Below, in pieces: positions 28,079 through 64,000 of a DNA stretch of 64,000 bases (position 1 is the first letter of the stretch; each line of letters begins with the position of its first letter). The notes beneath the pieces are model-generated. The model ran no database searches. It saw only the letters and a list, made by a program, of their open reading frames with translations, and was not told where the DNA came from. Position numbers and translations under genes: made by a program. Source of the DNA: Elusimicrobiota bacterium (GTDB lineage: Bacteria > Elusimicrobiota > Elusimicrobia > F11); the NCBI GenBank assembly GCA_044221725.1, contig JBGAON010000003.1:542517-606516 (forward strand). The letters are read 5' to 3'.

Positions 28079-28106
28079 CTTACAAAAGATTTACACAGGG
28101 CTTACC
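28079..28106 (+). promoter_or_regulatory. 11-bp-period (C/T)TTACA direct-repeat box upstream of the gsp operon
   Basis: CTTACA-N5-TTTACA-N5-CTTACC. Same motif as the boxes in the toxin island. Confidence 0.7.
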
Positions 28107-28139
28107 TTGGCTTGACGACAAATTTAATAACAGCTGGCC

Positions 28140-29561
28140 ATGGGTATTCTCAAAGAGCTGGTCCCCGACAGTGATTTGCTCAAGCGTGTGTCCGCGGCCG
28201 TCGCGGCCCGCTGGCGTTTTATTCCAATCGGGCGAGCCGCCTCGGGTTCTATTACGGTCGCCGCTTGCGATCCGGACAATCTCGAACGTCTCGATAACAT
28301 TTCTGTTTTTCTCGGAGCTCCGGTCACGGCGCTTCGTTGCGATGAAAGCGAATTCCGCGAGGCGTTACGGAAACTGTATGGGTTGGGCGCCGAAGCGATT
28401 GATTCGCTTCAAGCGACCAGCGTGCCGAGCGAATCGGACCCGGAATTTGATTCTCCCCCCGAAAGCGCGGCAATGGTGCGTTTCGTGGACGATTTGCTGA
28501 AACAAGCGCACCGCGAACGCGCGACCGATATCCACATCGAACCGTTCGAGAACGAAACCACGATTCGGTTCCGTATTGATGGCTTGCTAAATCCAATCCG
28601 CGTGCCCGAGAACCTGGTGCGTCACCAGGCCCTCTTAACCTCGCGCATTAAAGTGATGGCGCATATGAACATCGCCGAAAAGCGGCTCCCGCAAGACGGT
28701 CGCGTGCGCGTGGCGTTGGGCGAGGACAACGTCGATATTCGTGTCTCCACAATTCCAACGGTGCACGGTGAAACCGTTGATTTGCGCTTGTTGCCGCAAG
28801 CGAACATGATTCACGGCCTGGAGAAACTGGGCCTCAGCGTTGATCAGCAAACGGTGCTTGAAAAACTTATTCGCAAACCGAACGGCATCGTGCTCGTGAC
28901 CGGGCCGACCGGCCATGGAAAAACAACCACGCTCTACTCTTTCCTATCGGGAATCAACACGAGCGAGAAGAAAATCGTCACGATTGAAGATCCCGTTGAG
29001 TACCGTTTGCGCGGGATCAATCAGATCCAGGTGCACGCAAAAATTGGACTCACGTTTGCGAGCGGGTTGCGATCGGTTTTGCGGCAGGATCCCGACGTGA
29101 TTATGGTGGGCGAAATTCGCGATCACGAAACCGCCGAGATTGCGATTCGCGCGTCGTTAACGGGTCATCTGGTCTTCAGCACGTTGCACACAAATGATGC
29201 GATCGGCGCGGTGACACGCCTTATCGACATGGGCATCGAACCCTATTTGGTCGCGTCGTCGGTGAGCGTCGTGCTCGCGCAACGACTGGTGCGCACGCTT
29301 TGCACGGCGTGCGGGCATCAAAAGCCCGAATGCGATATCTGTCACGGCGTCGGTTTCAAAGGCCGAACCGGCCTATTTGAGTTGCTCATTATTAATGAGT
29401 CGCTCCGCGAAATGATTGCGAGTCGAACGCCGGCATCGGCGCTACGAAAGGCGGCGGCGTCGTTGGGAATGAAAACGCTTTTTGAAAGCGGCCAAGCGAA
29501 AGCCGAACGGGGTATCACGACCCTGAACGAAGTACGACGCGTGGCCGAAGAGATCGCGTGA
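28140..29561 (+). CDS. gspE: Type II secretion ATPase
   Basis: ATDIHIEP, EKRLPQDGR, GPTGHGKTTT, TIEDPVE, LRQDPDVIMVGEIRD, TGHLVFSTLHTN, CxxC...CxxC. Confidence 0.92.
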   Translation: MGILKELVPDSDLLKRVSAAVAARWRFIPIGRAASGSITVAACDPDNLERLDNISVFLGAPVTALRCDESEFREALRKLYGLGAEAIDSLQATSVPSESDPEFDSPPESAAMVRFVDDLLKQAHRERATDIHIEPFENETTIRFRIDGLLNPIRVPENLVRHQALLTSRIKVMAHMNIAEKRLPQDGRVRVALGEDNVDIRVSTIPTVHGETVDLRLLPQANMIHGLEKLGLSVDQQTVLEKLIRKPNGIVLVTGPTGHGKTTTLYSFLSGINTSEKKIVTIEDPVEYRLRGINQIQVHAKIGLTFASGLRSVLRQDPDVIMVGEIRDHETAEIAIRASLTGHLVFSTLHTNDAIGAVTRLIDMGIEPYLVASSVSVVLAQRLVRTLCTACGHQKPECDICHGVGFKGRTGLFELLIINESLREMIASRTPASALRKAAASLGMKTLFESGQAKAERGITTLNEVRRVAEEIA

Positions 29562-30583
29562 AGCTCAAACACTCGGAGACCGTTCTTTTGACGCGACGCT
29601 TGGCGGATCTGCTGAAGGGCGGTTTGCCGCTCAGTCGCAGTGTGGACGTTCTGCGAAAGCAGTCGGGGAGCCCGAACTTAAAAAAGGTTTTGTCGTCGGT
29701 AAAAAGTGAGCTCGAGAGTGGCCACAGTTTTTCGCAAGCGCTCAAACTCCAGAACGGAACATTCCCCCGTATCGCGATCGGAATCGTTCAAGCCGGTGAG
29801 CTCTCCGGAAATCTCGACGCGTCGCTGTCGGAACTGGCAAAGCTACTGGAAACCGATATGGAAGTGCGTCAACGATTGCGCGCGGCACTCGTGTATCCGG
29901 CTTTTTTGTTGGTGCTGGCAATGGTGGTTTGCGCATTTCTATTGGGATTCGTGATCCCGCGGTTTCAATTTCTGTTTCAAGACTTGGGACAAACACTCCC
30001 GCTGCCAACGCGTATTTTAATTCTCGCTTCGTCCGGGTTCCGGTACGTGTTTGTCACGCTGGCGCTGGCCGTGATCGGCGGATTCTTTGTGATGAAACGT
30101 GCCTCCGTGTTGGCGCGGGCACAAGACGCGTTACTAAAGCTGCCAATTGTTTCTGACGCCTGGCGCAACGCGGTGCTTCAGCGCTGGGCCAGCATGATGG
30201 AATCGTTGTTGCGCAGCGGTTACACGGTATCGGACGCGATTCAGCTGTCGCGACAATCCATTAACGATCCCTTTTTTTCTGAGGCGCTAAAGAAAGTTAT
30301 CAGCGAAATAATTCAGGGAAAAAATTTCAAATCCGCACTCGAATGCTCCCGTTGGTTCCCGCCAATGATGTGCGAGCTCGTCGGAGCCGCCGAAGAGACC
30401 GGGCAGCTCGAGGAATCGTTCGGACGATTGGCTGTGTCCTATCGGCGCGAAACCGAACATCAGTGGAAAATGTTTTTGTCTTTTCTCGAGCCGGCGCTCA
30501 TCCTCGGCATGGGCGCGGTGGTCGGTTTCGTCGCGCTGGCCATGCTTCTCCCCATCTTCGAAATGAGCGCAACGCTGCGATGA
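29558..30583 (+). CDS. gspF: Type II secretion inner-membrane platform protein
   Basis: G.PL, GE.SG.L, AL.YP, LP.PT, EETG.L, LEP...M..PIF. Confidence 0.9.
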   Translation: MKLKHSETVLLTRRLADLLKGGLPLSRSVDVLRKQSGSPNLKKVLSSVKSELESGHSFSQALKLQNGTFPRIAIGIVQAGELSGNLDASLSELAKLLETDMEVRQRLRAALVYPAFLLVLAMVVCAFLLGFVIPRFQFLFQDLGQTLPLPTRILILASSGFRYVFVTLALAVIGGFFVMKRASVLARAQDALLKLPIVSDAWRNAVLQRWASMMESLLRSGYTVSDAIQLSRQSINDPFFSEALKKVISEIIQGKNFKSALECSRWFPPMMCELVGAAEETGQLEESFGRLAVSYRRETEHQWKMFLSFLEPALILGMGAVVGFVALAMLLPIFEMSATLR

Positions 30584-31062
30584 CATTTTGCGGAATATAC
30601 GTTCGGTTTCGTCGGCCCCGCGGAGGGCGACGAAGACTTTTTCGGATAGGACAAAATCGATGTCATCTCAATCGCGGGTTTACTCTGGCGGAAATTATGC
30701 TCGTGGTCGCGATTATCGGCATTCTTGTGTCGGTGGTCGTGCCGCGGTTGACGGGGCGCACGCAGGAAGCGCGAATTTCGACGACGCGGCTCCAAGTGGA
30801 AAATATTGCGATGGCGCTGGATGCCTTTGAATACGACTGCGGCCGTTATCCGTCGTCCCAAGAAAGTTTGGAAGCGCTGCGAGCAGCCCCCTCCGGGATC
30901 AGCAATTGGAAAGGACCCTACCTCAAGCGCGCGGTTCCGGTCGACGCGTGGAAAAATCATTTTGTGTACCGCGTGCCGGGCCAAGACAATCCCGACTTCG
31001 ATTTGTTTTCAATGGGTCCCGACGGAAAAGAAGGCACCGAGGATGACATTGGGAACCACTAA
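30580..31062 (+). CDS. gspG: Major pseudopilin
   Basis: ATG overlaps the gspF stop. RG|FTLAEIMLVVAIIG, AL..F..D.G.YP, WKGPYL, D.W...F.Y..PG, S.GPDG.EGT.DDI.N. Confidence 0.92.
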   Translation: MTFCGIYVRFRRPRGGRRRLFRIGQNRCHLNRGFTLAEIMLVVAIIGILVSVVVPRLTGRTQEARISTTRLQVENIAMALDAFEYDCGRYPSSQESLEALRAAPSGISNWKGPYLKRAVPVDAWKNHFVYRVPGQDNPDFDLFSMGPDGKEGTEDDIGNH

Positions 31063-31261
31063 AAAAAACGGCTTCACATTGGCAGAAATCTGCGTGGCCG
31101 CCGCGCTCACCGGTCTCGTTTGCCTTATCGCATGGCCGGCGATTCGCGGTTATATGCAACGCGTGTCAGCCGATGCGCAAGGGTCGGGCACCGCGGTGGA
31201 GCAATTGTTAGCGCGGGAGCGCGCCATTTGGAGCGGAAAGGGAAATGAAAATTCGAAATAG
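31043..31261 (+). CDS. Very short minor pseudopilin (GspH position)
   Basis: KKNG|FTLAE prepilin motif, only 72 aa. Confidence 0.7.
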   Translation: MTLGTTKKNGFTLAEICVAAALTGLVCLIAWPAIRGYMQRVSADAQGSGTAVEQLLARERAIWSGKGNENSK

Positions 31262-31475
31262 AAAAGGGTGTAACGGTTACTTGTTAATGGAAGCGTTGCT
31301 CGCGGTCACGGTTCTTTCGATTGGATTGTACGCAACGCTCGAAGCGTTCGCGTTGGTTCACACTGCTCGCGAACGCAGCCGAGAAGACGCGCTGGCCGCG
31401 CGCTGCGAAGAAATTGGTCGACTTCGGCAGCTCGTTCGTGCGCCGGTACGTGACGAGAGGTGCGTGGAGCGATGA
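31245..31475 (+). CDS. Very short minor pseudopilin (GspI position)
   Basis: NG|YLLMEALLAVTVLSIG, 76 aa. Confidence 0.7.
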   Translation: MKIRNRKGCNGYLLMEALLAVTVLSIGLYATLEAFALVHTARERSREDALAARCEEIGRLRQLVRAPVRDERCVER

Positions 31476-32056
31476 AACAGAATGGCTTCACACTTATTGA
31501 GGTGATGATGGCCATCACTATTCTTTTGATGGTGGCGGCAACCGGTTTCCAGGTGATTCGCGCGGAGAGTGCTCGGTTTCAAGGGCTCGCCGCGTCGCTG
31601 CGTGCGCAGGTTGATACCAATGTTCTTCTTGCGCAAATGGCCAAAGATCTTCGCGCTGCGTATTTATCTGCTGATAACGAGCAAAGCTTCTTTGTTTCGC
31701 CGGATGGGAAAACCGTTTCTTTCACGCGGCGGGTGGCGGACATCGATATCGAAGCCGTTGAGCAAATCAATTTTGGACCCAAACAGGATATGTCGTTCGA
31801 GTTTTTTGATGGCCAGCAGTGGAAATCGAATTGGGGTTGGGATGCGGTGAACAAAAAACCATTGCGCGGAATTCGGGGCTTGCCGTTGTGCGTGCGGGTC
31901 AAAGTGACGTGCGCCGACGGAGCGAGCGACGAACGAATTTTGCCGATTATGACGAGTGTGTTGAACCGTGCTTCCGTTGCCCCGGCACGCATTTGGCGGG
32001 GGCCCAAGTTTTCCGATGAAGAACCTGGATCCCGGCCAATAGGAATGCCGGGATGA
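31472..32056 (+). CDS. Minor pseudopilin (GspJ-like)
   Basis: QNG|FTLIEVM, Q..KDLR.A, FEFFDG.QW...W, LP..V.V. Confidence 0.8.
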   Translation: MKQNGFTLIEVMMAITILLMVAATGFQVIRAESARFQGLAASLRAQVDTNVLLAQMAKDLRAAYLSADNEQSFFVSPDGKTVSFTRRVADIDIEAVEQINFGPKQDMSFEFFDGQQWKSNWGWDAVNKKPLRGIRGLPLCVRVKVTCADGASDERILPIMTSVLNRASVAPARIWRGPKFSDEEPGSRPIGMPG

Positions 32057-32439
32057 CGAATTGCATCATGAATCGTCGGGGCGCGATTGGAATTGCCGCG
32101 CTGTGGATATTGTTGGCGGCCTCTGCATTGGCAACCGCGGCGATTTCTATGGCTCGTGCTGAGCGGAAAACGGCCGCCTATCGACTGGAAGAATTTCGGC
32201 TCACCTATTTAATTGTGGACGCCGCATTGGCGGATCGGGACGCTAATTTTGTTTCCGATGAAAATGAGATTGAAACGGCTCATGGAAAGCTGCGCGCGAC
32301 GCGCGCGTTTTCGAACAACAAGAAATCCGTCCGGTGGATCGCTCGCGCGGACGGGCCGCATTTTTCGAAACAAGTCGAAATTGGCTGGACGCACGAGGCC
32401 CCCACCTGGCGCGCCGATTATTGGAGCGAACTCAAATGA
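32053..32439 (+). CDS. Short GspK-like pseudopilin
   Basis: RRG|AIGIAALW lacking E5, as in GspK. Only 128 aa. Confidence 0.65.
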   Translation: MTNCIMNRRGAIGIAALWILLAASALATAAISMARAERKTAAYRLEEFRLTYLIVDAALADRDANFVSDENEIETAHGKLRATRAFSNNKKSVRWIARADGPHFSKQVEIGWTHEAPTWRADYWSELK

Positions 32440-32467
32440 CCCGTCTTTTCCCATGGCGTGATTCCCA

Positions 32468-33652
32468 ATGAAAAAAGGATTCGTGTTTATCGAGTGGCAC
32501 AGCGACGGTTTGCGCGTGCTTCAGTCTGATCACTTTAAATTCTTTCCCTGGTCGTTGCGGCGGAAATTCACCGCGATGAGCAACCCGATGGATTTTCTCA
32601 GCGACATCGAGAAGATGGCCGCGGCGGTTCACGGGCCGGGCCTCAATGCCGTGCTTGCTGTGCCGCGGTCGGAAATGTTTTTCATGGCCAACAAGATGGA
32701 ATTCGCGAATGACGACATGGTGTGGATGGATTCGTCGTTTTGGGTGATGGGATTGCGTCGGGACCGCCTAAAAATATTTGTCGACGCGTTCATGGCCGTC
32801 GGAATTCGAATTTCCGCTATGGGCGAGTCGACGACCGCGAGCGCCGTGTCGTTCCAGCAATCGGGCGTCTGTTCGGCGCATAACGTGACGGCCGTTTTGA
32901 CCATCGCGGATTCCTCCGCCGAGTTGTTGTTTGTCGATGGTGCGAACGTGTTCTACAGCCGGTCGCTGCCCGTCGGCGATGCATTGGTTGAGGACACACA
33001 AAAGACGTTCCGCTATTTCCTTTCGGAAAAAAATGGCGTGGCGCCGCAACGCACGGTGGTGCTGCACAAAGATCCGGCAAAAGCAAAGTCGGTGTTCGGT
33101 GGTGTCGAAACCATAAAACACATCGAATTCCTTCCGCAACAGTCGGACGCAGCCGTGCGCGGACTTTCCTTGATGATCAAACAGGCCGCCGGTTTCTGGA
33201 TTATTCCCCCCGGCCGAAACACGCTCGCGAAAATTTTGGCGCCGGAGCATCGACAGACGATGTTGGCTGGCGGTGCGGTTCTTTTTCTGTTGCTTTCCTA
33301 TTTTATTGGCGGAGCCCGCAGCCATCTTCAGCAACAAATCTGGAATTCGAAGCAGATGTTGCAAATTTCTCAAACGAAGTTGCCCACCGCACGGGATCCG
33401 GCATCGGATATTTTTTCTGCGGTCCAGGCGCAGGTTCCAGTGGGCTTGCATCTTTTGGATTATTCCTACGACGCGGAGCGCCGGGCGATCGCATTGCGGG
33501 GTCGTGCCGCCGATTACGAGCGCGTTTCAAATTTTGCGGCGAATCTCACCGCGGACGGTGCGTTTCGTTCGGCGCGGGCGGAGAAGTCCGCGCTCGTAAC
33601 CGTTGGAAAAAACCAAGTAGTCGAATTCTCCGTGGACGCGAGACTGCGGTGA
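32468..33652 (+). CDS. GspL/PilM-PilN-like assembly protein
   Basis: Actin-like cytoplasmic region, one TM, C-terminal PilN-like I.L.G.A..Y..V..F...L...F. Position in the operon. Confidence 0.7.
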   Translation: MKKGFVFIEWHSDGLRVLQSDHFKFFPWSLRRKFTAMSNPMDFLSDIEKMAAAVHGPGLNAVLAVPRSEMFFMANKMEFANDDMVWMDSSFWVMGLRRDRLKIFVDAFMAVGIRISAMGESTTASAVSFQQSGVCSAHNVTAVLTIADSSAELLFVDGANVFYSRSLPVGDALVEDTQKTFRYFLSEKNGVAPQRTVVLHKDPAKAKSVFGGVETIKHIEFLPQQSDAAVRGLSLMIKQAAGFWIIPPGRNTLAKILAPEHRQTMLAGGAVLFLLLSYFIGGARSHLQQQIWNSKQMLQISQTKLPTARDPASDIFSAVQAQVPVGLHLLDYSYDAERRAIALRGRAADYERVSNFAANLTADGAFRSARAEKSALVTVGKNQVVEFSVDARLR

Positions 33653-34509
33653 CGCATTTTGCGAGATATCGTTTGGGTTTGTTTGTCGGAACGTTTGTTG
33701 TGTCGGCCGCCGTCTTTGTAATTCAGAGCGTGCGATTTTACCGCGACCGATCCGAAGCTAATTTGTTCGACAGAGAGATGGCCACGGCCACGCACGCGAA
33801 CGCCGCGCTGCCCAATTCTGTTCAGAAGATCGAAGCACTCGCGAGCGCCGGCGCGAAAAAAACGGGCGTGGCGCGGCTGTTAAGTGTGAGTACCCCAAAA
33901 GCCGGTGTGCTGCAACTCGAATGGGAAGGAACGCCGACCGCGACCGCTGCCTACTTGACGGCGCTCGCGACCGACGCGCGTGTTGGTACGTGTCGCTTGT
34001 TGCGCGTCATGCCCGTCGATTCGCGCGGTCCCCTTTTGCGCGCGTCCGCTTCGTTTGCGCTGGGGCCCGTGCCGCGCGCTGTGGTTTTGCACAAAACCGA
34101 ATTTAAAAATGGCCGAAACGTGTTTGCGGCGCTTTGGCACGAGGAGTCCGCGTCGAATTTGCAGGACCATCTTGCGGAACTCAAGCGCGAAGAAAAGTTG
34201 CGTCACGACGAAGAAGCGAAGCAGGAGGCCGAGCGACGCGTGCAAGACGAAGCGAACCGGTTGACCGAAAAACGTCGGCAATTGGAATCGGGGCTTGTGC
34301 TCACCGGAATTGTGAGCAACGGGCGCGAGCCGCTGGCGTTCGTGAACAACCGAAGTTCTGGCGGCCGAACCGTCATGCTCCGGAGCGGCGACGTGATTGA
34401 AGAAGCGCGCGTAACTAGCATCGAGGCCGATAAGGGCGAGCTGCGGCTCGATTACTCGGGCAAGTTTCAGATTTCACTGAAAATAAATTCTGGCGCGGGT
34501 GTTCAATGA
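33649..34509 (+). CDS. GspM/GspC-like (PilO/PilP-like) fusion protein
   Basis: N-terminal TM, coiled coil, C-terminal L.LTGIV....P.A.VN...GD.I...V..I (GspC/PilP-like). Confidence 0.55.
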   Translation: MTHFARYRLGLFVGTFVVSAAVFVIQSVRFYRDRSEANLFDREMATATHANAALPNSVQKIEALASAGAKKTGVARLLSVSTPKAGVLQLEWEGTPTATAAYLTALATDARVGTCRLLRVMPVDSRGPLLRASASFALGPVPRAVVLHKTEFKNGRNVFAALWHEESASNLQDHLAELKREEKLRHDEEAKQEAERRVQDEANRLTEKRRQLESGLVLTGIVSNGREPLAFVNNRSSGGRTVMLRSGDVIEEARVTSIEADKGELRLDYSGKFQISLKINSGAGVQ

Positions 34510-36026
34510 AGAAAAGTGGAATTGTTCTCATCGCAAGCCTCTTAATCGCACCGGTTCGTTCGTTCGCCGATCCGGACCCGATTGCCGCTCCCGCGCAAGA
34601 CATCACGCTCAATTTTCAAAACACCGATATTGATATGGTGCTCCAATTTTTTAGTCAGGTCACCGGAAAAATTTTCGTGAAGAGCGATTTGGTTCGCGGC
34701 TTTGTAACCGTCGCCGCGCCCGGCAAAGTCGCGCTTCCGGAGGCGATGGATATTTTGCAGTCGGTGTTGGAGGTAAAAGGCTTCACGCTCGTTCCGGGCA
34801 ACGGAAAAATGATCAAAGTGTTGCCGCAAACGGAGGCCGCGCAGCAGGGTGGGCTCGAAGTCGCTTATGGCGCGGATGTAGCGTCCAGCGAAAGCGACCG
34901 CATGATCACGCAGGTGATTCCGCTTAAATTTGTTTCGCCGACGGATTTTAAGGCAAGCCTGACGCCGCTCATGTCAAAAAGTGGGTCCCTCATCGCGGAC
35001 GAGCGCACGAACGCGATTGTTGTCACCGACATGGCGTCCAACGTTCGGCGCCTCATTAAGATGGCGGACGCATTGGACGTGCGCGCGCCTCAAGTGCTGA
35101 TCGAAGCGCTCATTATGGAAATTACGCTTACCGACGAGACCAAATTGGGCGTCGAGTGGAGCAACACCGGAAACTTCACAAGCCACGATCACACGTTCAA
35201 CACGCAGACGTCGCAGGGTTTTAGTTTGAGTGATTTCATCAGCGAAGGATTGAAGTATTCGCTGATTCGTGATGACGGAAAGTTGTCCGGCGTTATTCAG
35301 GCGTTGGCCACCAACAAAGATGTGAATATTCTTTCGACACCGCACATCATGACGCTGAACAATCAGCCGGCCGTGATTCGCGTGGGCGAAGAGGTTCCAA
35401 TTCTTACGCAAACGCGCAACATTCAGGGCGGTGAAACAATTCGAAGCTACGATTACAAATCGGTGGCGATCGAACTCGAGGTAACGCCGCGCATCAATGT
35501 CGATCGTGAGGTGTTGCTCAAAGTGCATCCGCTCGTAAAAAAGATTTTGGGTTTTAACGCCGAACTGAACGCGCCTATCCTCGCAAACCGAGAAGCGCAG
35601 ACGGTCGTCTCCATCAAAAGCGGCCAGACCGTGGTGATTGGTGGGCTCATGAAAGACGACCGCGCCTCCAGCGTCAGCAAAGTTCCGCTGTTGGGCGATA
35701 TTCCACTGCTCGGAATGTTGTTCCGAAAACAAGGGAACACACGCGAAAAGACGGAGCTCTTGGTGTTTATTACCCCGCGCGTGGTGACGACGCCCGAGGA
35801 AGCGCAGGCGCTCACGATCAAAAAGGAATCCGAATCAAAAGATTCCCCGACGCCCTACCGAAAGAGCGCCCGCGAACATTACGAAGACGGCGAGCGCGCC
35901 TACGATGCAAAAAATTACCACGTCGCGCTCGACGAATGGCGCCAAGCGCTGGCGCTCTCCCCCGATCAAAAACTCCGCACGCGCTGCGAGAAGCGCATTA
36001 AGAAGGCGGAGAAGAAGATAAAATAA
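34506..36026 (+). CDS. gspD: Type II secretion secretin with C-terminal TPR
   Basis: ITLNF.N.DI (N0), one N domain (DERTNAIVV), PQVLIEA, ILSTPHI, KVPLLGDIPLLG.LF, ELLVFITP, terminal TPR. Confidence 0.92.
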   Translation: MKKSGIVLIASLLIAPVRSFADPDPIAAPAQDITLNFQNTDIDMVLQFFSQVTGKIFVKSDLVRGFVTVAAPGKVALPEAMDILQSVLEVKGFTLVPGNGKMIKVLPQTEAAQQGGLEVAYGADVASSESDRMITQVIPLKFVSPTDFKASLTPLMSKSGSLIADERTNAIVVTDMASNVRRLIKMADALDVRAPQVLIEALIMEITLTDETKLGVEWSNTGNFTSHDHTFNTQTSQGFSLSDFISEGLKYSLIRDDGKLSGVIQALATNKDVNILSTPHIMTLNNQPAVIRVGEEVPILTQTRNIQGGETIRSYDYKSVAIELEVTPRINVDREVLLKVHPLVKKILGFNAELNAPILANREAQTVVSIKSGQTVVIGGLMKDDRASSVSKVPLLGDIPLLGMLFRKQGNTREKTELLVFITPRVVTTPEEAQALTIKKESESKDSPTPYRKSAREHYEDGERAYDAKNYHVALDEWRQALALSPDQKLRTRCEKRIKKAEKKIK

Positions 36027-36031
36027 AAAAA

Positions 36032-36088
36032 GAGATCGCCACGTCGGCTTCTATTATTCTGAATTTATTGATGCCGCCTCGCGATGAC
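36032..36088. repeat. REP-like palindromic element between convergent genes
   Basis: GAGATCGCCACGTCGGC...GCCGCCTCGCGATGAC resembles widespread GTCATCGCGAG/CGTGGCGATCTC extragenic repeats. Confidence 0.45.
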
Positions 36089-36091
36089 AGG

Positions 36092-36898: not shown

Positions 36899-36902
36899 TA
36901 TT

Positions 36903-54840: not shown

Positions 54841-54885
54841 AATTCTCCCGGACCCCATCAAATGCAAAAAGATTTTCGGAAGGGC

Positions 54886-54939: not shown

Positions 54940-54950
54940 ACTTTTTTCCG

Positions 54951-56498: not shown

Positions 56499-56508
56499 TA
56501 TCGTACGC

Positions 56509-57483
56509 TCACTTGGTTCGGTATTGTAGATTAATCCCCTGTTTTATTGGCTTTCCGTTTTCGGCGAATTGAGGGACACTTTTCGGTGAAACAAAGCCGA
56601 GTTCATCGCGTTCCTTTGCGCAACGGGCGCTCTGAGAAAAAAATCTATCTGACTCTGTTTTTGCGGCGTTCTTCCCAACGACGGCGTACAATTTCGCCAA
56701 ATTGTTCCATGCTTCGACCAATTTGGGATTTAGTTTGGTGGCCAGTTCGAAATTCCCGATCGATTTGTTCAGGGCCCCGTCCTGGCCAAACGTGACGGCG
56801 TTCATGGCGGCTAGGTCACCCAAGAGTTCCCGGTGGCTCAGCGTGCGCAAATAGGCACCGTTCTTCTGTCCTTTCTTGCTCACGCGAAAATCCTTCGCGT
56901 ATTGCGCATCAGGAACGTAGCCACCGCCGCTCGTCGCCTCGATGTTTTGTTCGGTGAGATGCGCATCCACGTAACGAACAAACGTGTGATCCGGTACATG
57001 CACAAGATAAACCGGCCAACCGAGGCGCTGCGCCACGGCCACATAGAGCAGCGGCAGCGAAAAGCAATTTCCTTGCTTCGTATCGAGCACACGGTTCAAA
57101 TAGTAATTGTCACGCTGACGGTTGAACGACGTGTCCCGACTCGCCCAAAACTTTTCGCGCTGATGAATAACGGTGTTCAAACATCGAACTCGAAATTCCG
57201 GGTCAGTGCTATTGCGAGCAATGGCCCGGACCTCATCAGCTATCGCGTCAATTCGCGCCGAATAAGATGAGATATCAACCGACGGATAAACTTCCTTGGC
57301 AAACGCAAACGCCGCCACGCCGATGTCGATATCTTTTTCCTGAAGCGATAAGAGAATTGCTTCCGTCGACCTTTTCGACGGGCCAGTCCTATCCGCGCCC
57401 GAGCCAACGGCAACGAAGAATAACGTCGCAATAACCAAAAGCGCCGCATAAAAAAAAGAATGTGATGTGTGAGATCTGTTCAT
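56509..57483 (-). CDS. Exported transglutaminase-like (SirB1/Transglut_core2-like) protein with TPR
   Basis: Signal-like N-terminus, L..VLD.KQGNC.SLP.LY..VAQRLG, P.H.FVRY, NIE.T, TPR (AWNNLA.LY). Confidence 0.8.
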   Translation of the reverse strand: MNRSHTSHSFFYAALLVIATLFFVAVGSGADRTGPSKRSTEAILLSLQEKDIDIGVAAFAFAKEVYPSVDISSYSARIDAIADEVRAIARNSTDPEFRVRCLNTVIHQREKFWASRDTSFNRQRDNYYLNRVLDTKQGNCFSLPLLYVAVAQRLGWPVYLVHVPDHTFVRYVDAHLTEQNIEATSGGGYVPDAQYAKDFRVSKKGQKNGAYLRTLSHRELLGDLAAMNAVTFGQDGALNKSIGNFELATKLNPKLVEAWNNLAKLYAVVGKNAAKTESDRFFSQSARCAKERDELGFVSPKSVPQFAENGKPIKQGINLQYRTK

Positions 57484-57504: not shown

Positions 57505-57558
57505 AGACTAGCAGTCTAATGTAAATTTAATGTAAGCGGGCGGTAAAAGAATTGGAAA
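57505..57558 (-). promoter_or_regulatory. TTACA direct-repeat promoter box
   Basis: TTTCCA-N5-TTTACC-N5-CTTACA-N5-TTTACA-N9-TAGTCT. Near-identical to the boxes at 60531 and 62192. Confidence 0.8.
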
Positions 57559-57599
57559 ATAAATTTAATTAGCGATGAACGTTGCCGCGTCCTCAGAGG

Positions 57600-58835: not shown

Positions 58836-59344
58836 TTAGTAGGGCGGTATTGAATCAAACCCTCGAATTGATCCCGGGGGAGTTCCATTGGGAAATATAA
58901 TTTCATCGCCTCCTCCTGATCGAATAATTTCTCCGAAACCATCCCGAAGCGGTTTTACCTGTTGGATGCCCGAGTTTGGAACCTTGGTCAAATCAACGCT
59001 TAAGATGTAACGAACATTTGGTGGTGAATCATATGCGTCCTTTATTGGAATCGCAAGCCTGGATTGTGCATCTCGACCCCGTTTAAAAAAATCAGGGGTA
59101 CCATGCCCTGGCTTATTTAATCCGTTCGTCAGCAGACCGAGCGCATTCTGTTTATATCCATGGTAACGTACGAATATCGATTTAGACTTTGTGGGTCGGC
59201 CGGGCCTGGTACCAAGGAATCTGGAGAGATAAAACGCCCGGTGGAAGCGGCGTAATAGCGCGCGTGAAGAGGTGCATTCAAAAATAGGAGCGATGCCAAC
59301 GAAAGTGCTGGTGCCTTCCGTAAAACTAACGAGATCGATTTCAT
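58836..59344 (-). pseudogene. Internally deleted, frameshifted signal-peptide + RHS-core mini toxin
   Basis: MKSISL...PLHA|RYY...GRFISPD...NRYSYV, then an out-of-frame junction near 59165 to YHGY...GGGDEIIFPNG...PPY*. Confidence 0.8.
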
Positions 59345-60477
59345 TTGCTTTTCGTCTCCGCGACGGCGGCAATCTTTTTCGGAGCTGTGCCTTTAATTTT
59401 TGCCAGCGCTTTCTTAACGGTTTGACTGATCGTGTAGCCCTCAGAGTCAAAAGCGAGAATGTTGTTGTATTGGCCGCTGGTGAAAAGAGGGTCTCGTGTC
59501 ATGTAGTCATAGAAAGTCAACTCAAAACCGGCAAACTTCTCGTAAATGTCCCACACCGCGTAATAGCCGCAAGTGACGAGAAGTATTTTCGCCAGTTCAT
59601 CTTCAGGCGGCACTTCGCCTGGTTGAATTTTTACGATGGATTTTTGTGCGACGTTGAGTGGCACGGAATGCGGAGACGCAGAAGGTATTGGGAAATGCGG
59701 TGTCGCCGTGCTTTTCAAAAATTCCAGAATCTTGGTTTCCTTCAGTGCAAAATTCACATTTTGTGGAATGGCTCCCGACTCTCTCATAACTCGGGCCGAA
59801 TTGATCGTTTGTTGAATCATTCCGAGAACCTGCCCATTTGAATTAAGCAGAGGGCCCCCACTGTTGCCGGGTTGAATGGCCGCCGCAACTTGAAAGAAAT
59901 CAGGATTGTCTTTCATACCGACGGTGGCACTAATTATTCCTTCCGAGAGACGCGGCTGGCTGCCAAGCATCGATGAAAGAGGATATCCAATCGTGTAAAC
60001 CTTCTCCCCCATTGATGGCGTGTTGTCACCATGAAACGCAAGCGGTTGAATGGGGGTGGTTGGTCTATCTCTTAGTTTTAGTACCGCAAGATCCAGCGCG
60101 GAGCTCGTGCTGATCACGTCGGCGTAATGTCTTCGCCCGTCGTACCAGACAGTGGCGAAGTTTGTTTCCTCCATAACATGAAGGGCCGTGAGAAGATAGC
60201 CCTCTTTACTGATAAAAAAGGCTGTTCCCTGCGAACTTTTGTAATTGGAACGCTTATCCATAACAACGGCAGGAACGCCATACGCCGCGAATTCATCGCG
60301 AACGCGTTGAACCGCATTTCTCGGGTCGGGATCAATTGGAATTAAAAAAACTTTGTCGTACCCGGTTAAGTTTCTTTTTTCGTCGATTACATTAATTCGC
60401 GTGCTCGCGCAGCCGACAAACGATACGCAAAGCAGGATGACTGAAATGAGGTGATTTCGTTTGAGTGGTAAGGGCAT
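59341..60477 (-). CDS. Lipoprotein trypsin-like (S1C) serine protease
   Basis: Lipobox FVGC, GTAFFIS, LTALHV, DLAVL, IQPGNSGGPL. Confidence 0.9.
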   Translation of the reverse strand: MPLPLKRNHLISVILLCVSFVGCASTRINVIDEKRNLTGYDKVFLIPIDPDPRNAVQRVRDEFAAYGVPAVVMDKRSNYKSSQGTAFFISKEGYLLTALHVMEETNFATVWYDGRRHYADVISTSSALDLAVLKLRDRPTTPIQPLAFHGDNTPSMGEKVYTIGYPLSSMLGSQPRLSEGIISATVGMKDNPDFFQVAAAIQPGNSGGPLLNSNGQVLGMIQQTINSARVMRESGAIPQNVNFALKETKILEFLKSTATPHFPIPSASPHSVPLNVAQKSIVKIQPGEVPPEDELAKILLVTCGYYAVWDIYEKFAGFELTFYDYMTRDPLFTSGQYNNILAFDSEGYTISQTVKKALAKIKGTAPKKIAAVAETKSK

Positions 60478-60530: not shown

Positions 60531-60584
60531 AGTGTACAAACCGAATGTAAATTTAATGTAAACGGGCGGTAAAAGAATTGGAAA
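60531..60584 (-). promoter_or_regulatory. TTACA direct-repeat promoter box
   Basis: TTTCCA-N5-TTTACC-N5-TTTACA-N5-TTTACA-N9-TACACT. Confidence 0.8.
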
Positions 60585-60589
60585 AAATC

Positions 60590-61015
60590 TCAGACGCCAT
60601 CCCAGCAATGGCACACAGTAATATCTTTCAGAATGCCGTCTTTATTAAAAAGCCACGAGGCATCCACATTTGTTCCGCTGAGGAAAAAGTGTTTTGCCCA
60701 ACCGTAAGATGCAAAGCCCGTCGACAACCAGTAATCATGTAACTCGTAACGGACTGCGCCAGCCTTTTTGTCAGAATTTGAGGCGTCGACAACTTGTTGG
60801 CGGTCAAAGACTCCATCTTTACTCAATCGCCGATTAAATCTTTGAAGCATTATTTTTCTCACATCCGCCTCTTTCATTCCCACAGGCGTCTGTTCAAGGA
60901 GAAGGCTTCTTATTTCGTTATCTGACATTTTGATCGCGTCTTTTTCTGAAAGCAGAGAATGCGTTGAACATCCAAGCATGGAAAGGAAAATTAGGGGCAA
61001 AAAATATTTATTCAT
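60590..61015 (-). CDS. Lipoprotein immunity protein
   Basis: Start MNKYF with lipobox MLGC. Paralog of 63066-63530 (shared SYGWAKHFFL, VCHCWDGV). Confidence 0.8.
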   Translation of the reverse strand: MNKYFLPLIFLSMLGCSTHSLLSEKDAIKMSDNEIRSLLLEQTPVGMKEADVRKIMLQRFNRRLSKDGVFDRQQVVDASNSDKKAGAVRYELHDYWLSTGFASYGWAKHFFLSGTNVDASWLFNKDGILKDITVCHCWDGV

Positions 61016-61022: not shown

Positions 61023-62141
61023 TTACCAGTGAAGAACGTCGTGCTGAGTATACGTATTGCAGCTTCCAGTGCACACGTTATATGGCCCGCGATCACCGTT
61101 CGTTGGGATTGGAATAGCATCAAATGAAATATCCAACGGCTGAAACCAAGAACCAAGTCGATGGCCGGAATCTTTTAACGAATTTCCATCTTCGAAAATA
61201 TGTTTCTGAACCATGCCGCGTCCCCGCACACTATCAAGTTCTTTACTCTCTCGGGTGTCCGCATTAATAAAGGCGGAGTGGCCAATGCCAAATACCGAGA
61301 GTCCCGCGCTGATTGTTCCTTTAAGGGCTGTTATCAGTCCAGGGTTGTGTCCTTCTCGAAGCCGCGCACCCATTAAGTATGTTCCGCTTGTTGGCGGTCC
61401 CTGAATCGCATTATAAGTGAGCTGCGTGCCATTTGAGACGGTGCTTTCCCAAAAAGAATCCCTCGCTGATCGGCGGGCGTCGGCTGGGCTGCCGCCCATC
61501 GCCATTGTGGAAACATAGGAACCCGCCATGCTACCCATCGGGTTCGCCATCCCTCCCGCGCCAGCACCGACATTATAAATACCCACGCTGCCAACGGCGC
61601 CGTTTACCAGACCGGCGATTTCGCCTTGCGCCATTCCTTGTCCCATGCCGTCCATTACATTTCCACCGTACATAGCGGCACCTAGCGCGCCACTGGTCAT
61701 TCCGCTGGCCATGCCGCCGATAATGGCGCCGCCAAATCCCATGCCTGCGGCGGCGTAACCCCATTGCCCGGCCGCTGACGCAGCGGCGGCAATCGCGGCG
61801 GCTTTGAAATCAAAATTGTCCCACGAGCTAGAGTTGAATGGCTGTCCGTGCGTTCCGGCCCACGCTGAAGCAATGATAATAGCCGCGACCCAAAATAAGT
61901 GGCCATCGGGATCATTCAGGACAAGCGGGTTATTCCGAACATAAGCATATCGATTTAAGGTTTGAGGATCGTCCGCGTTCGGAACGACGGTGTCAGCAGA
62001 GATAAATCTTCCCGTCGGGGCACTGTAATAGCGTGCGTGTAGGTTTGTTGTGGCGCTCAGGAACAGCGTTGCGGCAATCACGCACGATGTGAATTTGAAC
62101 GGAAATGCACCTGCGGGAAAATTTTTCTTCGACAAATCCAT
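61023..62141 (-). CDS. Signal-peptide + RHS-core mini toxin with permuted papain/NlpC-P60-like C-terminus
   Basis: RBS GAGGAG, MDLSKK...NLHA|RYY...GRFISAD...NNP...DPDG, Gly/Ala/Met-rich region, GHSAF...YNVCT.SCNTY. Confidence 0.85.
   Translation of the reverse strand: MDLSKKNFPAGAFPFKFTSCVIAATLFLSATTNLHARYYSAPTGRFISADTVVPNADDPQTLNRYAYVRNNPLVLNDPDGHLFWVAAIIIASAWAGTHGQPFNSSSWDNFDFKAAAIAAAASAAGQWGYAAAGMGFGGAIIGGMASGMTSGALGAAMYGGNVMDGMGQGMAQGEIAGLVNGAVGSVGIYNVGAGAGGMANPMGSMAGSYVSTMAMGGSPADARRSARDSFWESTVSNGTQLTYNAIQGPPTSGTYLMGARLREGHNPGLITALKGTISAGLSVFGIGHSAFINADTRESKELDSVRGRGMVQKHIFEDGNSLKDSGHRLGSWFQPLDISFDAIPIPTNGDRGPYNVCTGSCNTYTQHDVLHW
61350..61489. repeat. 140-bp exact repeat with 63861-64000
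   Basis: Identical by eye. The second copy runs off the window end. Confidence 0.9.
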
Positions 62142-62191: not shown

Positions 62192-62245
62192 AGTCTAGCA
62201 ACCGAATGTAAATTTAATGTAAGCGGGCGGTAAAAGAATTGGAAA
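62192..62245 (-). promoter_or_regulatory. TTACA direct-repeat promoter box
   Basis: TTTCCA-N5-TTTACC-N5-CTTACA-N5-TTTACA-N9-TAGACT. Confidence 0.8.
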
Positions 62246-62254
62246 ATAAATTTA

Positions 62255-63064
62255 GAGGCAGTTGCGAAACGAGGCCTATTTTTCGTCGACAGATTCGTCA
62301 TTCCCGCGAAAGCGGGAATCCAGGCTTCACACTTTCATTTGAAGCAGATTCGCGTCGTATTTATCGTATTACTCTCGACGTTCCTTTGGTCGTTCTTCCG
62401 CTTGTTGTTTTCGAAATCGTTCGCCCTCTTCCTTCAGAAATTGTTCCTCTTGTTCGATCTCGCGATCCCGTTGGGCCCATTCCGCTTCTTTTCTTCGGAT
62501 GGCGCTCGCGTCCACAAATGATTCGAAGTGTTTGATGACCTTTCGAAGTTTCGCGTCGTCCACCATCTTCGTAAACATCTCCAGAATTCTCTTATCTCCC
62601 ATCGCCTTTCTTATTCGACAGAAAAACGTATGGTCTGGCGTGGATGATTCCATCGTGAATCCACAGAACCAACGGTAGAGAAAATTAAATCGGAGTTGTC
62701 GTTCCATCTGCCGATCAGAATGGTTCCCATAGAATTGCAAGAACAACGCCCGCAGCCCTGCTTCATAGCCGTACCCTTCTCGGCCCAAACATTTCTTCAT
62801 CTCGTCTCGGTCTTGTCCAATGCCGTCGACAAGCAAGCGCTCTTTGAATTTTCTTAAGACTTCATCTTCCGGTACCATTTTCTCTAAGTCGTAATGATTG
62901 AAAAACATTTGGGCCCTCCTCGCGCGGCGGCGCTCAAGTCCTTGGCGAATTTCCGATGCGAATAATCAGGTTCTCATAGAGGAAGATTACTGTTTTCTTA
63001 AGAAAGGTTTGAAACCTGGATTCCCGCTTTCACGGGAATGACGGCTCACTTTCGCAACAGTCTC
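62255..63064 (-). mobile_element. Truncated IS5/IS1182-like element with subterminal dRS3-like palindromes
   Basis: TIRs GAGGCAGTTGCGAAA / TTTCGCAACAGTCTC. ORF 62369-62908 has DUF772-like SDRQ.E......YRWFCG....PDH and VDAS but no full DDE domain. No TSD seen. Confidence 0.8.
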
Positions 63065-63065
63065 G

Positions 63066-63530
63066 TCATACCCCGTCCCAGCAATGACAGACAGAAATAT
63101 CTTTCAAGACTCCGTCTTTACTAAAGAGCCAAGAAGCGGAAACATAGTGTCCCGCGAGAAAAAAATGTTTTGCCCAACCGTAAGAAGCCAGGCCAGTTTC
63201 CATATAGTAATCGCCTAGCTCAATTTTAATGGGCGATTTTCTATTTACATCCTCGACAATGCTTTGTCGATCATATGTAGATTCCTTCCTAAGAGAACAA
63301 TTGAATTTTTCTTTGAGGATTCGTTTTACTGTTGATTGTTTCGTACCAAGCGGGATGCTCTTCAGAAAGACAGTTTTGATCTCCTCGTCGGTCATCTTTA
63401 TGTAGTCGCTGTCTCTCAACATTCCTTTATGCTGACAACACGAGAAACTTAGGCATATCGCGAAAAAATAGAGCGTTACGCCGGTGAACCTCGTAAAAGA
63501 AAATAAAATTCGTAGTTTGGTGGAAGTCAT
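63066..63530 (-). CDS. Lipoprotein-like immunity protein, paralog of 60590-61015
   Basis: Hydrophobic N-terminus ending FSCC, shared C-terminal motifs. Confidence 0.8.
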   Translation of the reverse strand: MTSTKLRILFSFTRFTGVTLYFFAICLSFSCCQHKGMLRDSDYIKMTDEEIKTVFLKSIPLGTKQSTVKRILKEKFNCSLRKESTYDRQSIVEDVNRKSPIKIELGDYYMETGLASYGWAKHFFLAGHYVSASWLFSKDGVLKDISVCHCWDGV

Positions 63531-64000
63531 CTATTTTCCAAGGGAATCATGCCACGTGTACGTATTGCAACTGGCCGTGCAGACATTGTAGGGCCCCCTG
63601 TCTCCGCCAGCAGGCATCCGAATGGAGTCGAACGAGACATCGAGAGGTTGAAACCAGCCTCCAAATCGTCGAGCGGAATATCGAAAAGAATTGTCTTTAT
63701 CCATGCGAGAATATTCTCTGACCTTTCCTCTACCGTCCACATCATTGAGTTCCTTTGTTCTTCCATTATCCGCATTTACGAACGCAGAATGTCCCATCCC
63801 AAGTATGGAAAGGCCTGCAGATATGGTTCCTTTCAGAGCGGTAATCACTCCAGACTCACTTCCTTCTCGAAGCCGCGCACCCATTAAGTATGTTCCGCTT
63901 GTTGGCGGTCCCTGAATCGCATTATAAGTGAGCTGCGTGCCATTTGAGACGGTGCTTTCCCAAAAAGAATCCCTCGCTGATCGGCGGGCGTCGGCTGGGC
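63531..64000 (-). CDS. C-terminal part of a toxin paralogous to 61023-62141 (5' end outside window)
   Basis: Frame is open to the window edge. GHSAF...YNVCTASCNTY. Confidence 0.85.
   Translation of the reverse strand, partial: PADARRSARDSFWESTVSNGTQLTYNAIQGPPTSGTYLMGARLREGSESGVITALKGTISAGLSILGMGHSAFVNADNGRTKELNDVDGRGKVREYSRMDKDNSFRYSARRFGGWFQPLDVSFDSIRMPAGGDRGPYNVCTASCNTYTWHDSLGK

Follow-up and report, generated by a model that had tools for sequence, protein, structure and literature searches.

A type II secretion operon linked to TcB-fused RHS proteins in an uncultivated member of the Elusimicrobiota

How large RHS- or toxin complex (Tc)-like toxins leave Gram-negative cells that have neither a type VI secretion system (T6SS) nor a TcA protein is poorly understood. 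We describe here a locus of an uncultivated Elusimicrobiota bacterium, represented by a metagenome-assembled genome of 2.82 Mb (5 contigs, 94% completeness), in which a type II secretion system (T2SS) operon of the gsp type abuts a convergent island of RHS toxin genes. The locus lies in a stretch of 64,000 nucleotides, hereafter called the window, which is the final 64 kb of a 606,516-bp contig; coordinates without further label refer to this window. The central gene of the island encodes an RHS protein with a Sec-type signal peptide and a TcB-like N-terminal half, it follows a gene for a tail-fibre-like protein, and the operon and the island carry the same phased sequence box. The arrangement was followed through a comparison set of 393 genomes of the class Elusimicrobia, coded G and a number, where G000 is the present genome, G001 belongs to the same genus and G002 is a congener. 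Judging from gene content and gene order, the best reading, to which we give an even chance, is that the T2SS and the RHS genes form a functional unit in which the T2SS would export RHS or fibre proteins.

The case for a T2SS route for Rhs proteins has so far consisted of one Xanthomonas mutant phenotype and of gene linkage in two proteobacterial genera. The phenotype is that of Bcn-A, an RHS bacteriocin of Xanthomonas perforans: it is active in the supernatant, and mutation of xpsD, a gspD gene, abolishes this activity (Marutani-Hert et al. 2020, PMC7259588). Bcn-A resembles the protein described here as an RHS antibacterial toxin whose model comprises plug, beta-propeller and YD barrel, and whose immunity gene is found downstream (PMC7259588). 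It is set apart, by description and not by sequence comparison, as a gammaproteobacterial protein of 1398 aa (153 kDa) served by the general Xps system, and the passages devoted to it mention no SpvB/TcdB_midN N-terminus, fibre gene, adjacent full gsp operon or shared operator (PMC7259588). The linkage concerns two large Rhs families, XRhs F VIII of Xanthomonas and RRhs F II of Ralstonia, which are linked to gspG and for which T2SS export was predicted, a prediction that the authors themselves call functionally unconfirmed (Gomez Cabrera et al. 2025, bioRxiv 10.1101/2025.05.08.652813). Thus, T2SS-linked Rhs toxins are already in print, mainly proposed for plant-pathogenic Proteobacteria, and the background given in the earlier note on this DNA, according to which RHS toxins typically leave by T6SS, Tc complexes or Gram-positive Sec export, was incomplete in this respect (PMC7259588; bioRxiv 10.1101/2025.05.08.652813). 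In the two proteobacterial families the linkage described is to gspG, whereas in the Elusimicrobia locus the whole operon is adjacent (in one relative, G323, the pseudopilin genes). What distinguishes the present locus from these families, and what is new here, is the phylum, the fusion of a TcB-like half to a toxin with a Sec signal, the fibre partner gene on the 5' side and the operator shared with gspE, to which is added a near-complete co-occurrence in a class where T2SSs are rare. The Elusimicrobia therefore offer, in an independent deep-branching phylum, an unusually clean link between T2SS and RHS.

Classical TcB and TcC proteins are not known to carry a Sec signal; they are made in the cytoplasm, dock on a TcA pentamer, act on cells of insects or animals and depend on a lysis-type release. 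The protein described here is built like the Tc BC subcomplex (PMC10317148), with a SpvB N-domain, an FG-GAP propeller, a TcdB middle/N region, an RHS shell, a DPxG core and a variable toxin. Unlike the classical proteins, it is a single fused chain with a signal peptide and lectin-like inserts, it is accompanied by lipoprotein immunity candidates and a T2SS, and TcA was not found, which is a weak negative. With the PAAR/VgrG Rhs effectors of T6SSs it shares the RHS shell, the core, polymorphic C-terminal toxins, immunity genes and orphan tails, but a signal peptide takes the place of the PAAR or prePAAR N-terminus. Indeed, a genome-wide search returned no PAAR (PF05488) and no TssC (PF05943), both of which were detected in control genomes. 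The earlier note, which had seen no alternative delivery genes in the window, is borne out for PAAR over the whole genome; TcA_TcB_BD (PF18276), VRP1 (PF03538) and ShlB likewise gave no match in this 94% complete genome, but these negatives are weak because the control genomes were silent for them as well.

Two further comparisons bear on nomenclature and on lineage. In the passages on export classes of Zhang et al. 2012 (PMC3482391), the class called 'T2SS' denotes the Sec/general secretory pathway as deduced from a signal peptide, not the Gsp secreton, and RHS toxins with SpvB and a propeller form a separate 'TcdB/TcaC' export route; here, by contrast, a single protein combines signal peptide and SpvB/propeller, and a true gsp operon is linked to its gene. 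In the Omnitrophota, T2SS-like loci precede giant genes, an arrangement interpreted as a weapon that serves antagonism or predation (West-Roberts et al. 2023, bioRxiv 10.1101/2023.11.21.568195). The likeness is that there, too, an uncultivated lineage has a conserved gspD/E/F-type locus alongside secreted proteins of very large size; the cargo candidates there, as that preprint presents them, exceed 10,000 aa, have many transmembrane regions and are not RHS proteins, and immunity arrays are not among what it describes. In the literature on Elusimicrobia together with type II secretion and Rhs, and on TcB/TcC together with a signal peptide, no arrangement like the present one was described, with the reservation that preprint supplements may hold relevant loci.

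The gsp operon, the TcB-fused RHS protein and its neighbours

The gsp operon (Table 1) appears to be complete. It runs from gspE and gspF through gspG, candidate minor pseudopilin genes, a gspL-like gene and a gene in the gspC/M position to gspD, and its genes overlap or abut. Two of its products, GspG and GspD, are matched at the equivalog level, GspD with 361.3 bits against TIGR02517 (cut-off 351.35), and the earlier note's description of a gsp operon abutting a convergent RHS island is confirmed by these matches and by the gene content. GspF is without about 60 N-terminal residues of the TIGR02120 model and reaches 283 bits against an equivalog cut-off of 424. Since both GspE and GspF stay under their NCBIfam cut-offs, their sequences alone cannot separate them from PilB and PilC, and it is the operon context with GspG and GspD that supports their assignment. 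The ATG of gspG at 30580, which overlaps the gspF stop, was picked by reading, the listed open reading frame (ORF) starting at 30343. Some of the less typical components recur in relatives: the 198-aa GspJ/H-like pseudopilin has homologues in G001, G007 and G011, the 128-aa protein in the GspK position has homologues in the gsp operons of G001 and G011, and the 286-aa protein in the GspC/M position is conserved immediately 5' of gspD in G001, G009 and G011.

The whole genome holds only one GspG-type match, and the cluster pilB-T-C, pilin, prepilin peptidase, pilM-N-O-(P)-Q, which is separate and lies on a different contig, is that of a canonical type IVa pilus. The window operon, called dedicated in the earlier note, is therefore the only T2SS of this genome and not an extra, dedicated one; the T2SS loci of two relatives, moreover, lie beside genes for a subtilase or a HYR adhesin (see below). 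Elsewhere in the genome, a 246-aa protein consists of little besides a secretin domain (G000:C1, L055:6500-7240), and a third PilB-like ATPase gene adjoins genes for a GAF-HD protein, a PilZ protein and an OmpR-type two-component pair (G000:C2, L056:3276-8985).

By its domain content, the central RHS protein is a fused TcB/TcC-type chain, of which the TcB-like half had been overlooked in the earlier reading. Its SpvB match is unique in the genome by profile search, and all 4 Rhs-core matches of the genome fall in the window. The core ends in NIDPSGQ, a DPxG-type cleavage motif. For the three C-terminal toxin domains of the island, Pfam gave no match at E<=1 and the protein Atlas only 'RHS core' clusters. 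A small lipoprotein gene directly follows the toxin domain, and at the matching position G032 has a DUF1375 lipoprotein. Signal peptides were called by eye on the sequence together with a hydrophobicity heuristic. In this way, the Sec signal that had been noticed on every toxin with a visible N-terminus is found again in 4/4 cases, that is, in the full-length RHS protein and in all 3 short RHS-tail genes; in addition, 17/20 island proteins scored carry one. Of the listed TcB-RHS homologues, the 9 ORFs (from 7 genomes) whose N-terminus is visible all begin with a signal-peptide-like segment as well.

The gene for the 300-aa tail-fibre-like protein ends within the start of the RHS gene. Its homologues have in common an N-terminal (K)INxQGKLTxxxGxPxxG region and differ in their C-termini, which match Collar in G032 (5.9e-22), the Peptidase_S74 endosialidase chaperone in G284 (6.1e-13) and G290 (3.1e-8), and weakly BclA_C/C1q in G280, the Atlas leads being Collar and Gp10_C clusters. 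A shared N-terminus joined to varied Collar- or S74-type C-termini is the pattern of phage tail fibres, and from this resemblance we infer that the protein may be a receptor-binding partner. Such a gene stands immediately 5' of RHS in G000, in G284, at 6 loci of one multi-copy genome and before 3 RHS copies (two loci) of another, and its place in G001 and G032 is between the RHS and gsp genes. It is absent 5' of RHS in G007, G009, G031, G042 and G280; in G280 and G042 the fibre gene adjoins the T2SS, with no RHS adjacent there on the contigs seen.

Besides the full-length RHS gene, the island contains four further modules made of a core tail and a toxin domain, each followed by a small gene. 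In the short-toxin genes, a signal peptide that ends in an AxA-type site (AHA or LHA) is joined to the RYY of the RHS core's final ~45 residues, after which comes the toxin domain. That these short tails might be silent orphan cassettes was rejected, since each has its own ATG and signal peptide, box elements accompany them (see below) and the junction between signal peptide and RYY recurs in relatives: it is found twice in G007 and once in G280, while in G002 (L070:4791-5867) 11 residues separate the signal peptide from RYY. Altogether, the architecture of signal peptide, RHS-core tail and toxin was seen in 7 cases in 4 genomes, and by this architecture these proteins look like expressed secreted toxins. 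Short toxin 3 is 43.6% identical over 319 aa to an RHS tail of G035, where a homologue of the following lipoprotein gene (60590-61015) lies directly 3' of the homologous toxin, so that this toxin-immunity pair is conserved. Small lipoprotein genes thus stand 3' of the RHS toxin domain and of two short-toxin tails. The immunity candidates gave no Pfam match above cut-off, and short toxin 1, searched against 5.8 billion proteins, gave matches to its core tail only (15 matches, 12-48% coverage).

Co-occurrence, adjacency and a shared TGTAA box

Homologues of the TcB-like half of the RHS toxin are present in 13/393 genomes. A genome was counted as T2SS-positive if it had GspG over cut-off, a GspD orthologue at E<=1e-60 or an f1-type GspD orthologue (seen among 40 relatives). 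GspG as the sole marker was dropped because it missed G042, G048 and G290, in which GspD, GspE and GspF genes are present, and the combined, class-wide criterion was used instead: GspG is over its cut-off in 17/393 genomes, and the second-type GspD at E<=1e-60 gave 13 matches, three of them new, each of these three being toxin-positive. By this criterion 21/393 genomes have a T2SS. It is found in 12 of the 13 TcB-RHS genomes and in 9 of the 380 others, the four classes comprising 12 genomes with both, 1 with the toxin only, 9 with the T2SS only and 371 with neither (Fisher p = 1.6e-16 for the class as a whole and 1e-7 for the toxin-bearing families alone, which comprise 57 genomes; both values make the case look stronger than it is, as relatives do not count as independent observations and the criterion had been broadened once a first result was in). 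The toxin-only genome is 79% complete and in 510 contigs. In one of the T2SS-only genomes, G001, a contig breaks off within a TcB-RHS gene of which only the first residues are left, 2.7 kb away from gspD.

In 7 genomes, which represent 5 families (G000, G001, G032, G035, G284, G323 and G048), at most 12 kb separate an RHS element from a gsp gene, in a tally that leaves out four genomes; a gene placed at random would come so near a 9-kb cluster in about 1.5% of cases. The adjacent loci show at least four differing gene orders and two orders within gsp, E-first/D-last and D-first. RHS and gsp are convergent in G000; in G001 an RHS fragment is followed by two fibre genes and then gspD...E; in G032 and G035 the RHS gene precedes gspD-E-F-G on a single strand; in G284 gspD...L-M, fibre and RHS follow one another on a single strand with gaps of 180 and 10 nt; in G323 an RHS tail, an immunity gene and a lipase gene come before gspG-H; and in G048 an RHS tail, gspE...D and another RHS tail succeed each other. 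The conserved linkage of gsp with signal-peptide RHS genes that the earlier note had put forward for comparison is thus present in relatives, by co-occurrence (12/13) as well as by adjacency.

Among relatives whose T2SS locus has no adjacent RHS gene, two have other large secreted proteins encoded there. The T2SS locus of G282 (L062:12210-19450) is followed by genes for a transglutaminase-like protein and a HYR/Ig adhesin of more than 2065 aa, and that of G306 (L063:3323-7378) lies near a gene for a 1351-aa subtilase.

The second link between the operon and the island is a box. The island boxes are TGTAAGTTATTTGTAAATT-like arrays in which TGTAA recurs with an 11-bp period. When three TGTAA at this period with at least 14/15 matches were sought, 12 sites were found in the 2.8-Mb genome, against 0.3 on average and at most 2 in 20 shuffles, and 8 of the 12 lie within 28-62 kb of the window. 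These eight are located 5' of gspE, 5' of the lipoprotein gene next to gspD and of its truncated duplicate, 5' of the fibre-RHS and the outer-membrane protein (OMP)-autotransporter units, and in three copies of a 63-nt element. The upstream box that the operon and the island had been said to share is therefore present on both sides. The gspE box is oriented to its gene in the same way as the island copies and is outside any longer repeat. The short toxins at 53809 and 61023 are preceded by the box-bearing 63-nt element, and that at 59129 follows the protease gene, which has its own box upstream. Of the four boxes outside the window, one (G000:C5:256662, 15/15) precedes the gene for a 2319-aa signal-peptide protein without a Pfam family (L052:1206-8163), which is possibly a further member of the same regulon.

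Direct repeats at an 11-bp phase resemble operators of the OmpR/PhoB type. The genome has 9 regulators with an OmpR-type Trans_reg_C domain and the window none, the nearest regulator consisting of a receiver domain only; the two-component control proposed in the earlier note is left with a box-preceded histidine kinase in the island and no DNA-binding response regulator in the window. In G032, a gene for a sigma-70-family factor (L008:7739-8563) lies directly 5' of TcB-RHS, and control of the T2SS-RHS module seems to differ between lineages. Scans of 27.3-41 kb gave fewer sigma-70 promoter-like sites than shuffled sequence (5 against 10.3) and terminator-like sites at chance level.

Proposed export of the RHS proteins and its alternatives

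In a prediction that we regard as evenly balanced, and which is drawn from sequence features, the T2SS would carry the periplasmic fibre-like protein and the RHS toxin or toxins over the outer membrane, for antibacterial antagonism. The RHS, fibre and other island proteins would be exported by Sec to the periplasm, where the TcB/TcC-like cocoon would fold around the C-terminal toxin and self-cleavage would occur at the DPxG motif. The pseudopilus would then drive passage through GspD, and the target would be bound via the fibre and the lectin-like insert. The Gly-rich toxin domains might act on the envelope of competitors, periplasmic lipoproteins protecting kin, and a box-binding regulator, probably of the OmpR/PhoB type, would induce the whole set. 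The antibacterial reading draws on the lipoprotein genes that follow toxin domains and on the one toxin-immunity pair conserved with G035. Of the proposal made in the earlier note that the T2SS exports RHS toxins, the functional link stands, through co-occurrence, adjacency and the shared box, while export itself is only inferred. A more specific version, which we put forward tentatively as a less than even possibility, holds that the T2SS of the Elusimicrobia is chiefly the exporter of a three-part, TcA-free, Tc-like weapon made of a BC-type RHS cocoon with a lectin domain, a fibre as receptor-binder and the secreton, the short toxins expressed from the same operator being extra ammunition. 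The conserved fibre-like partner provides a concrete hypothesis for how such a toxin might find its target, and the gene set (gsp operon, fibre, RHS, immunity) is small enough to be reconstituted in order to ask whether the secretin passes an RHS cocoon.

Several observations weigh against coupling between the T2SS and the RHS proteins. The GspD criterion was added after four RHS-positive, GspG-negative genomes had been seen, although the added search covered all 393. T2SS and RHS are apart in G280 (54 kb) and in G007 (99% complete, with 10-12 kb of free flanks), and no adjacency exists within the flanks seen in G031, G009, G011 and contig C112 of G290. Outside the Elusimicrobia, 0/7 TcB-RHS loci have gsp genes within +/-10 kb, and in a wider scan of 25 TcB-RHS loci gsp genes were found in the flanks of one only, which comes from a genome already counted as adjacent. 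No box site of at least 13/15 occurs in the locus sets of 12/13 relatives, G031 having two 13/15 sites, so that the box is lineage-specific and not a conserved part of the T2SS-RHS system; moreover, several of the island boxes duplicate one another. The contigs from RNA libraries (see below) are shallow and uninformative on export or transcription. Finally, Rhs cores are found in 72/393 genomes, 56 of them T2SS-negative. Wherever an N-terminus is visible in T2SS-negative genomes (4/4), the RHS proteins, of 1170-1370 aa, start with a signal-peptide-like sequence, and G002, a 100% complete genome lacking GspG, encodes a short signal-peptide RHS-tail toxin. This means that the Elusimicrobia have another fate for Sec-exported RHS proteins. 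The 1170-1370-aa proteins have no TcB half and often form tandem arrays.

Sec-signal RHS proteins in T2SS-negative genomes are what would be expected if the operon and the island belonged to a co-regulated surface and secretome regulon, in which the T2SS would carry smaller folded proteins (fibre, short toxins, proteases, adhesins) and the RHS cocoon of ~270 kDa would leave otherwise, by vesicles, lysis or another outer-membrane pathway, or would stay in the envelope. To this explanation we assign an appreciable probability, well short of even. Going by solved BC structures, a TcB/TcC-type cocoon of ~270 kDa is wider than 60-80 A. That is the width of T2SS cargo which secretins are said to accommodate (PMC5646246), and it speaks for smaller cargo and against passage of the RHS protein. 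The box common to gspE and the island would be equally at home in such a regulon, the fibre might be a T2SS substrate without an adjacent RHS in G280 and G042, and the T2SS loci beside the subtilase gene of G306 and the transglutaminase-like and HYR/Ig adhesin genes of G282 fit a general exporter with substrates encoded nearby. A secretome regulon accounts less well for the concentration of the T2SS in TcB-RHS genomes (12/13 against 9/380) and for the fibre and RHS genes, which overlap or abut and hence look like one unit; in addition, the 153-kDa RHS protein Bcn-A is XpsD-dependent (PMC7259588).

The unit of T2SS, fibre and RHS that we favour has also to be weighed against two less probable explanations. 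The linkage could be a by-product of mobile DNA, T2SS and RHS islands having settled in a shared variable hotspot with no mechanistic coupling. Indeed, the congener G002 carries a different island, with a 2569-aa protein, lipoproteins and a kinase/regulator (C11:39000-58999), 3' of the glycosyltransferase gene that precedes the operon here (27333-28067), from which it follows that this position is a variable hotspot; the island contains IS3 and IS5 remnants and internal duplications and has a lower G+C content over much of its length, and the T2SS is patchy in the family (5/11 relatives). We nevertheless consider this explanation unlikely, as the linkage recurs in 5 families with differing gene orders and two gsp orders, the co-occurrence persists across separate contigs or 54 kb, and the gspE box is not within a duplicated segment. 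Less likely still, in our judgement, is a TcA-independent, Tc-like (BC) toxin directed against eukaryotes such as protists, of which the small neighbouring genes would not be immunity genes. The SpvB, FG-GAP and TcdB_toxin_midN domains are those of TcB, and lectin-like Laminin_G_3 or discoidin inserts occur in the family. Against this stand the alternative toxin tails, which form arrays and have small, mostly lipoprotein genes behind them, and the toxin-lipoprotein pair conserved with G035, which is the polymorphic-toxin pattern as outlined in passages of Zhang et al. 2012 (PMC3482391), and no TcA-type gene was found, though the control genomes too were silent.

Other features of the window

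The coordinates of the features are collected in Table 1. Bases 1-28,000 of the window contain housekeeping genes, among them those for glycyl-tRNA synthetase, pantothenate kinase, succinyl-CoA ligase and 2-oxoacid:ferredoxin oxidoreductase, and the T2SS/RHS region begins where the conserved genome ends.

Table 1. Coordinates of the gsp operon, the RHS island and their boxes (nucleotide positions in the window unless marked aa; IS, insertion sequence)
Feature	Position	Strand	Basis or remark
Phased box CTTACA/TTTACA/CTTACC/TTGACG, 11-bp spacing	28079-28117	+	ends 23 nt 5' of gspE ATG; scan site 28079-28106, 14/15 against 3x TGTAA on the complementary strand
gsp operon	28140-36026	+
gspE ATPase, 473 aa, MshEN N-domain	28140-29561	+	PF00437 1.6e-130; TIGR02533 544 bits (equivalog cut-off 630)
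gspF platform protein, 341 aa	29558-30583	+	PF00482 1e-54; TIGR02120, model positions 59-399
gspG major pseudopilin	30580-31062	+	TIGR01710 134 bits (cut-off 88.85); PF08334 5.4e-32
Short minor pseudopilin candidate, KKNGFTLAEI motif	31043-31261	+	read within ORF 30806-31261; no family by Pfam/NCBIfam
Short minor pseudopilin-like ORF, 76 aa	31245-31475	+	by reading
GspJ/H-like minor pseudopilin, 198 aa, prepilin motif	31460-32056	+	N_methyl 6.8e-8, weak T2SSJ
Membrane protein in GspK position, 128 aa	32053-32439	+	no family match
GspL-like protein, PilM/PilN type, 394 aa	32468-33652	+	PilN 3.8e-8
Membrane/coiled-coil protein in GspC/M position, 286 aa	33649-34509	+	no family match
gspD secretin, 506 aa: N0, one Secretin_N, secretin domain	34506-36026	+	PF00263 1.4e-51, N0 3.4e-16
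Island, convergent with gspD	36092-64000	-
Lipoprotein, 240 aa	36092-36814	-	lipobox LIGC
TGTAA x3 box, 5' of lipoprotein gene	36870-36902		15/15
Two small signal-peptide proteins, candidate orphan immunity or envelope	36903-37418, 37474-38025	-	no Pfam families
IS3-family element (orfA 38950-39255, orfB 38105-38914)	38022-39255	-	HTH_Tnp_1 3.1e-25, rve 1.1e-21, rve_3 2.8e-27
Signal-peptide protein, 153 aa	39555-40016	-
Truncated duplicate of lipoprotein 5' end (40069-40284) and TGTAA box (40340-40372)	40069-40372	-
Lipoprotein, 107 aa, directly 3' of RHS toxin; candidate cognate immunity	40373-40696	-	LSGC; no Pfam family
Full-length RHS gene, 2457 aa; signal peptide, then low-complexity linker	40701-48074	-
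C-terminal toxin domain, aa 2187-2457 (271 aa), Gly-rich, hydrophobic	40701-41516	-	follows DPSGQ cleavage-type motif
Rhs-associated core, aa 2106-2186	41517-41759	-	TIGR03696 3.5e-23
RHS/YD repeat shell, aa ~1155-2105	41760-44612	-	RHS_repeat 5.4e-41
Laminin_G_3 lectin-like insert in RHS shell, aa 1807-1969	42168-42656	-	6.6e-24
CarboxypepD_reg insert in RHS shell	aa 1623-1676
TcB-like N-terminal half	45492-47822	-	SpvB aa 85-267 (1.4e-23), FG-GAP_3 propeller (1.2e-25), TcdB_toxin_midN aa 741-861 (9.4e-19)
Sec-type signal peptide MLVRFRLLKYPLVLWLAMWLPFAQA, followed by G	48000-48074	-	reading and hydrophobicity heuristic
Tail-fibre-like signal-peptide protein, 300 aa	48077-48979	-	stop overlaps RHS start by 4 nt
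TGTAA x3 box, 5' of fibre-RHS operon	49068-49100		15/15
Autotransporter, 1021 aa, PATR repeat, beta-domain	49099-52164	-	PF03797 1.5e-48
Outer-membrane beta-barrel protein, 214 aa	52161-52805	-	OMP_b-brl 3.2e-6, slightly under cut-off
TGTAA x3 box, 5' of OMP-autotransporter unit	52840-52872		15/15
Second, inverted IS5/IS1182 fragment	53019-53420
Protein without signal peptide, 131 aa, 3' of short toxin 1; candidate immunity	53395-53790	-
Short toxin 1, signal peptide ...NSPAHA/RYY, core tail, unique C-terminal domain	53809-54840 (core-tail ORF to 54867)	-	TIGR03696 positions 34-76
63-nt element with phased TGTAA box	54886-54948		weakest copy
7TM (seven-transmembrane) histidine kinase	54951-56498	-	Pfam
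Transglutaminase-like/TPR protein	56509-57483	-	Pfam
63-nt box element, 5' of transglutaminase-kinase unit	57505-57567
Short toxin 2, frameshifted	58836-59450	-	signal peptide and RYY tail in 59129-59344, remainder in other frame
Trypsin-like lipoprotein protease, 378 aa	59341-60477	-	lipobox FVGC; Trypsin_2 2.3e-27
63-nt box element, 5' of protease unit	60531-60593
Lipoprotein, immunity candidate for short toxin 3	60590-61015	-
Short toxin 3, signal peptide ...TTNLHA/RYY, core tail, C-terminal domain	61023-62141 (core-tail ORF to 62201)	-	TIGR03696
63-nt box element, 5' of short toxin 3	62192-62254
IS5/IS1182-family fragment (62369-62908) between 40-nt inverted repeats (62296-62335 and 63004-63043)	62296-63043	-
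Paralogous immunity gene (63066-63530) and paralogous toxin tail (63531-64000)	63066-64000	-	cut by contig end; duplicates 81%, 74%

The window DNA is present in sequencing runs labelled bioreactor, wastewater and sludge metagenome. Four metatranscriptome runs of one study yielded contigs of 200-900 nt, at least 99% identical and with a depth of about 1-8, on gsp, small genes, IS3 and RHS. One RNA-library contig, from data of that other study, bridges the gspD/lipoprotein junction (35968-36213) with 0 differences. These contigs support the assembly, and cannot show transcription, strand or level.

The lipoprotein gene next to gspD has a 50%-identical homologue 3' of the RHS gene in G284. Its 5' end and its box are part of a 178-nt direct duplication (36721-36898 and 40191-40368, 97%) that flanks 3.3 kb including the IS3 element, which suggests that a rearrangement has taken place between the RHS gene and gspD. 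At the other end of the island, two inverted IS5/IS1182 fragments (53131-53354 and 62391-62895) bracket about 9 kb with short toxins, the kinase and the protease, and this segment may be invertible or may have been transposed. Part of it (53395-57483), namely the module of kinase, transglutaminase-like protein, short signal-peptide RHS-tail toxin and small 3' gene, is shared with G002 (L070:4084-9849). G002 has no T2SS, and in its module a receiver-only regulator stands beside the 7TM kinase and the toxin gene is followed by one for a lipoprotein.

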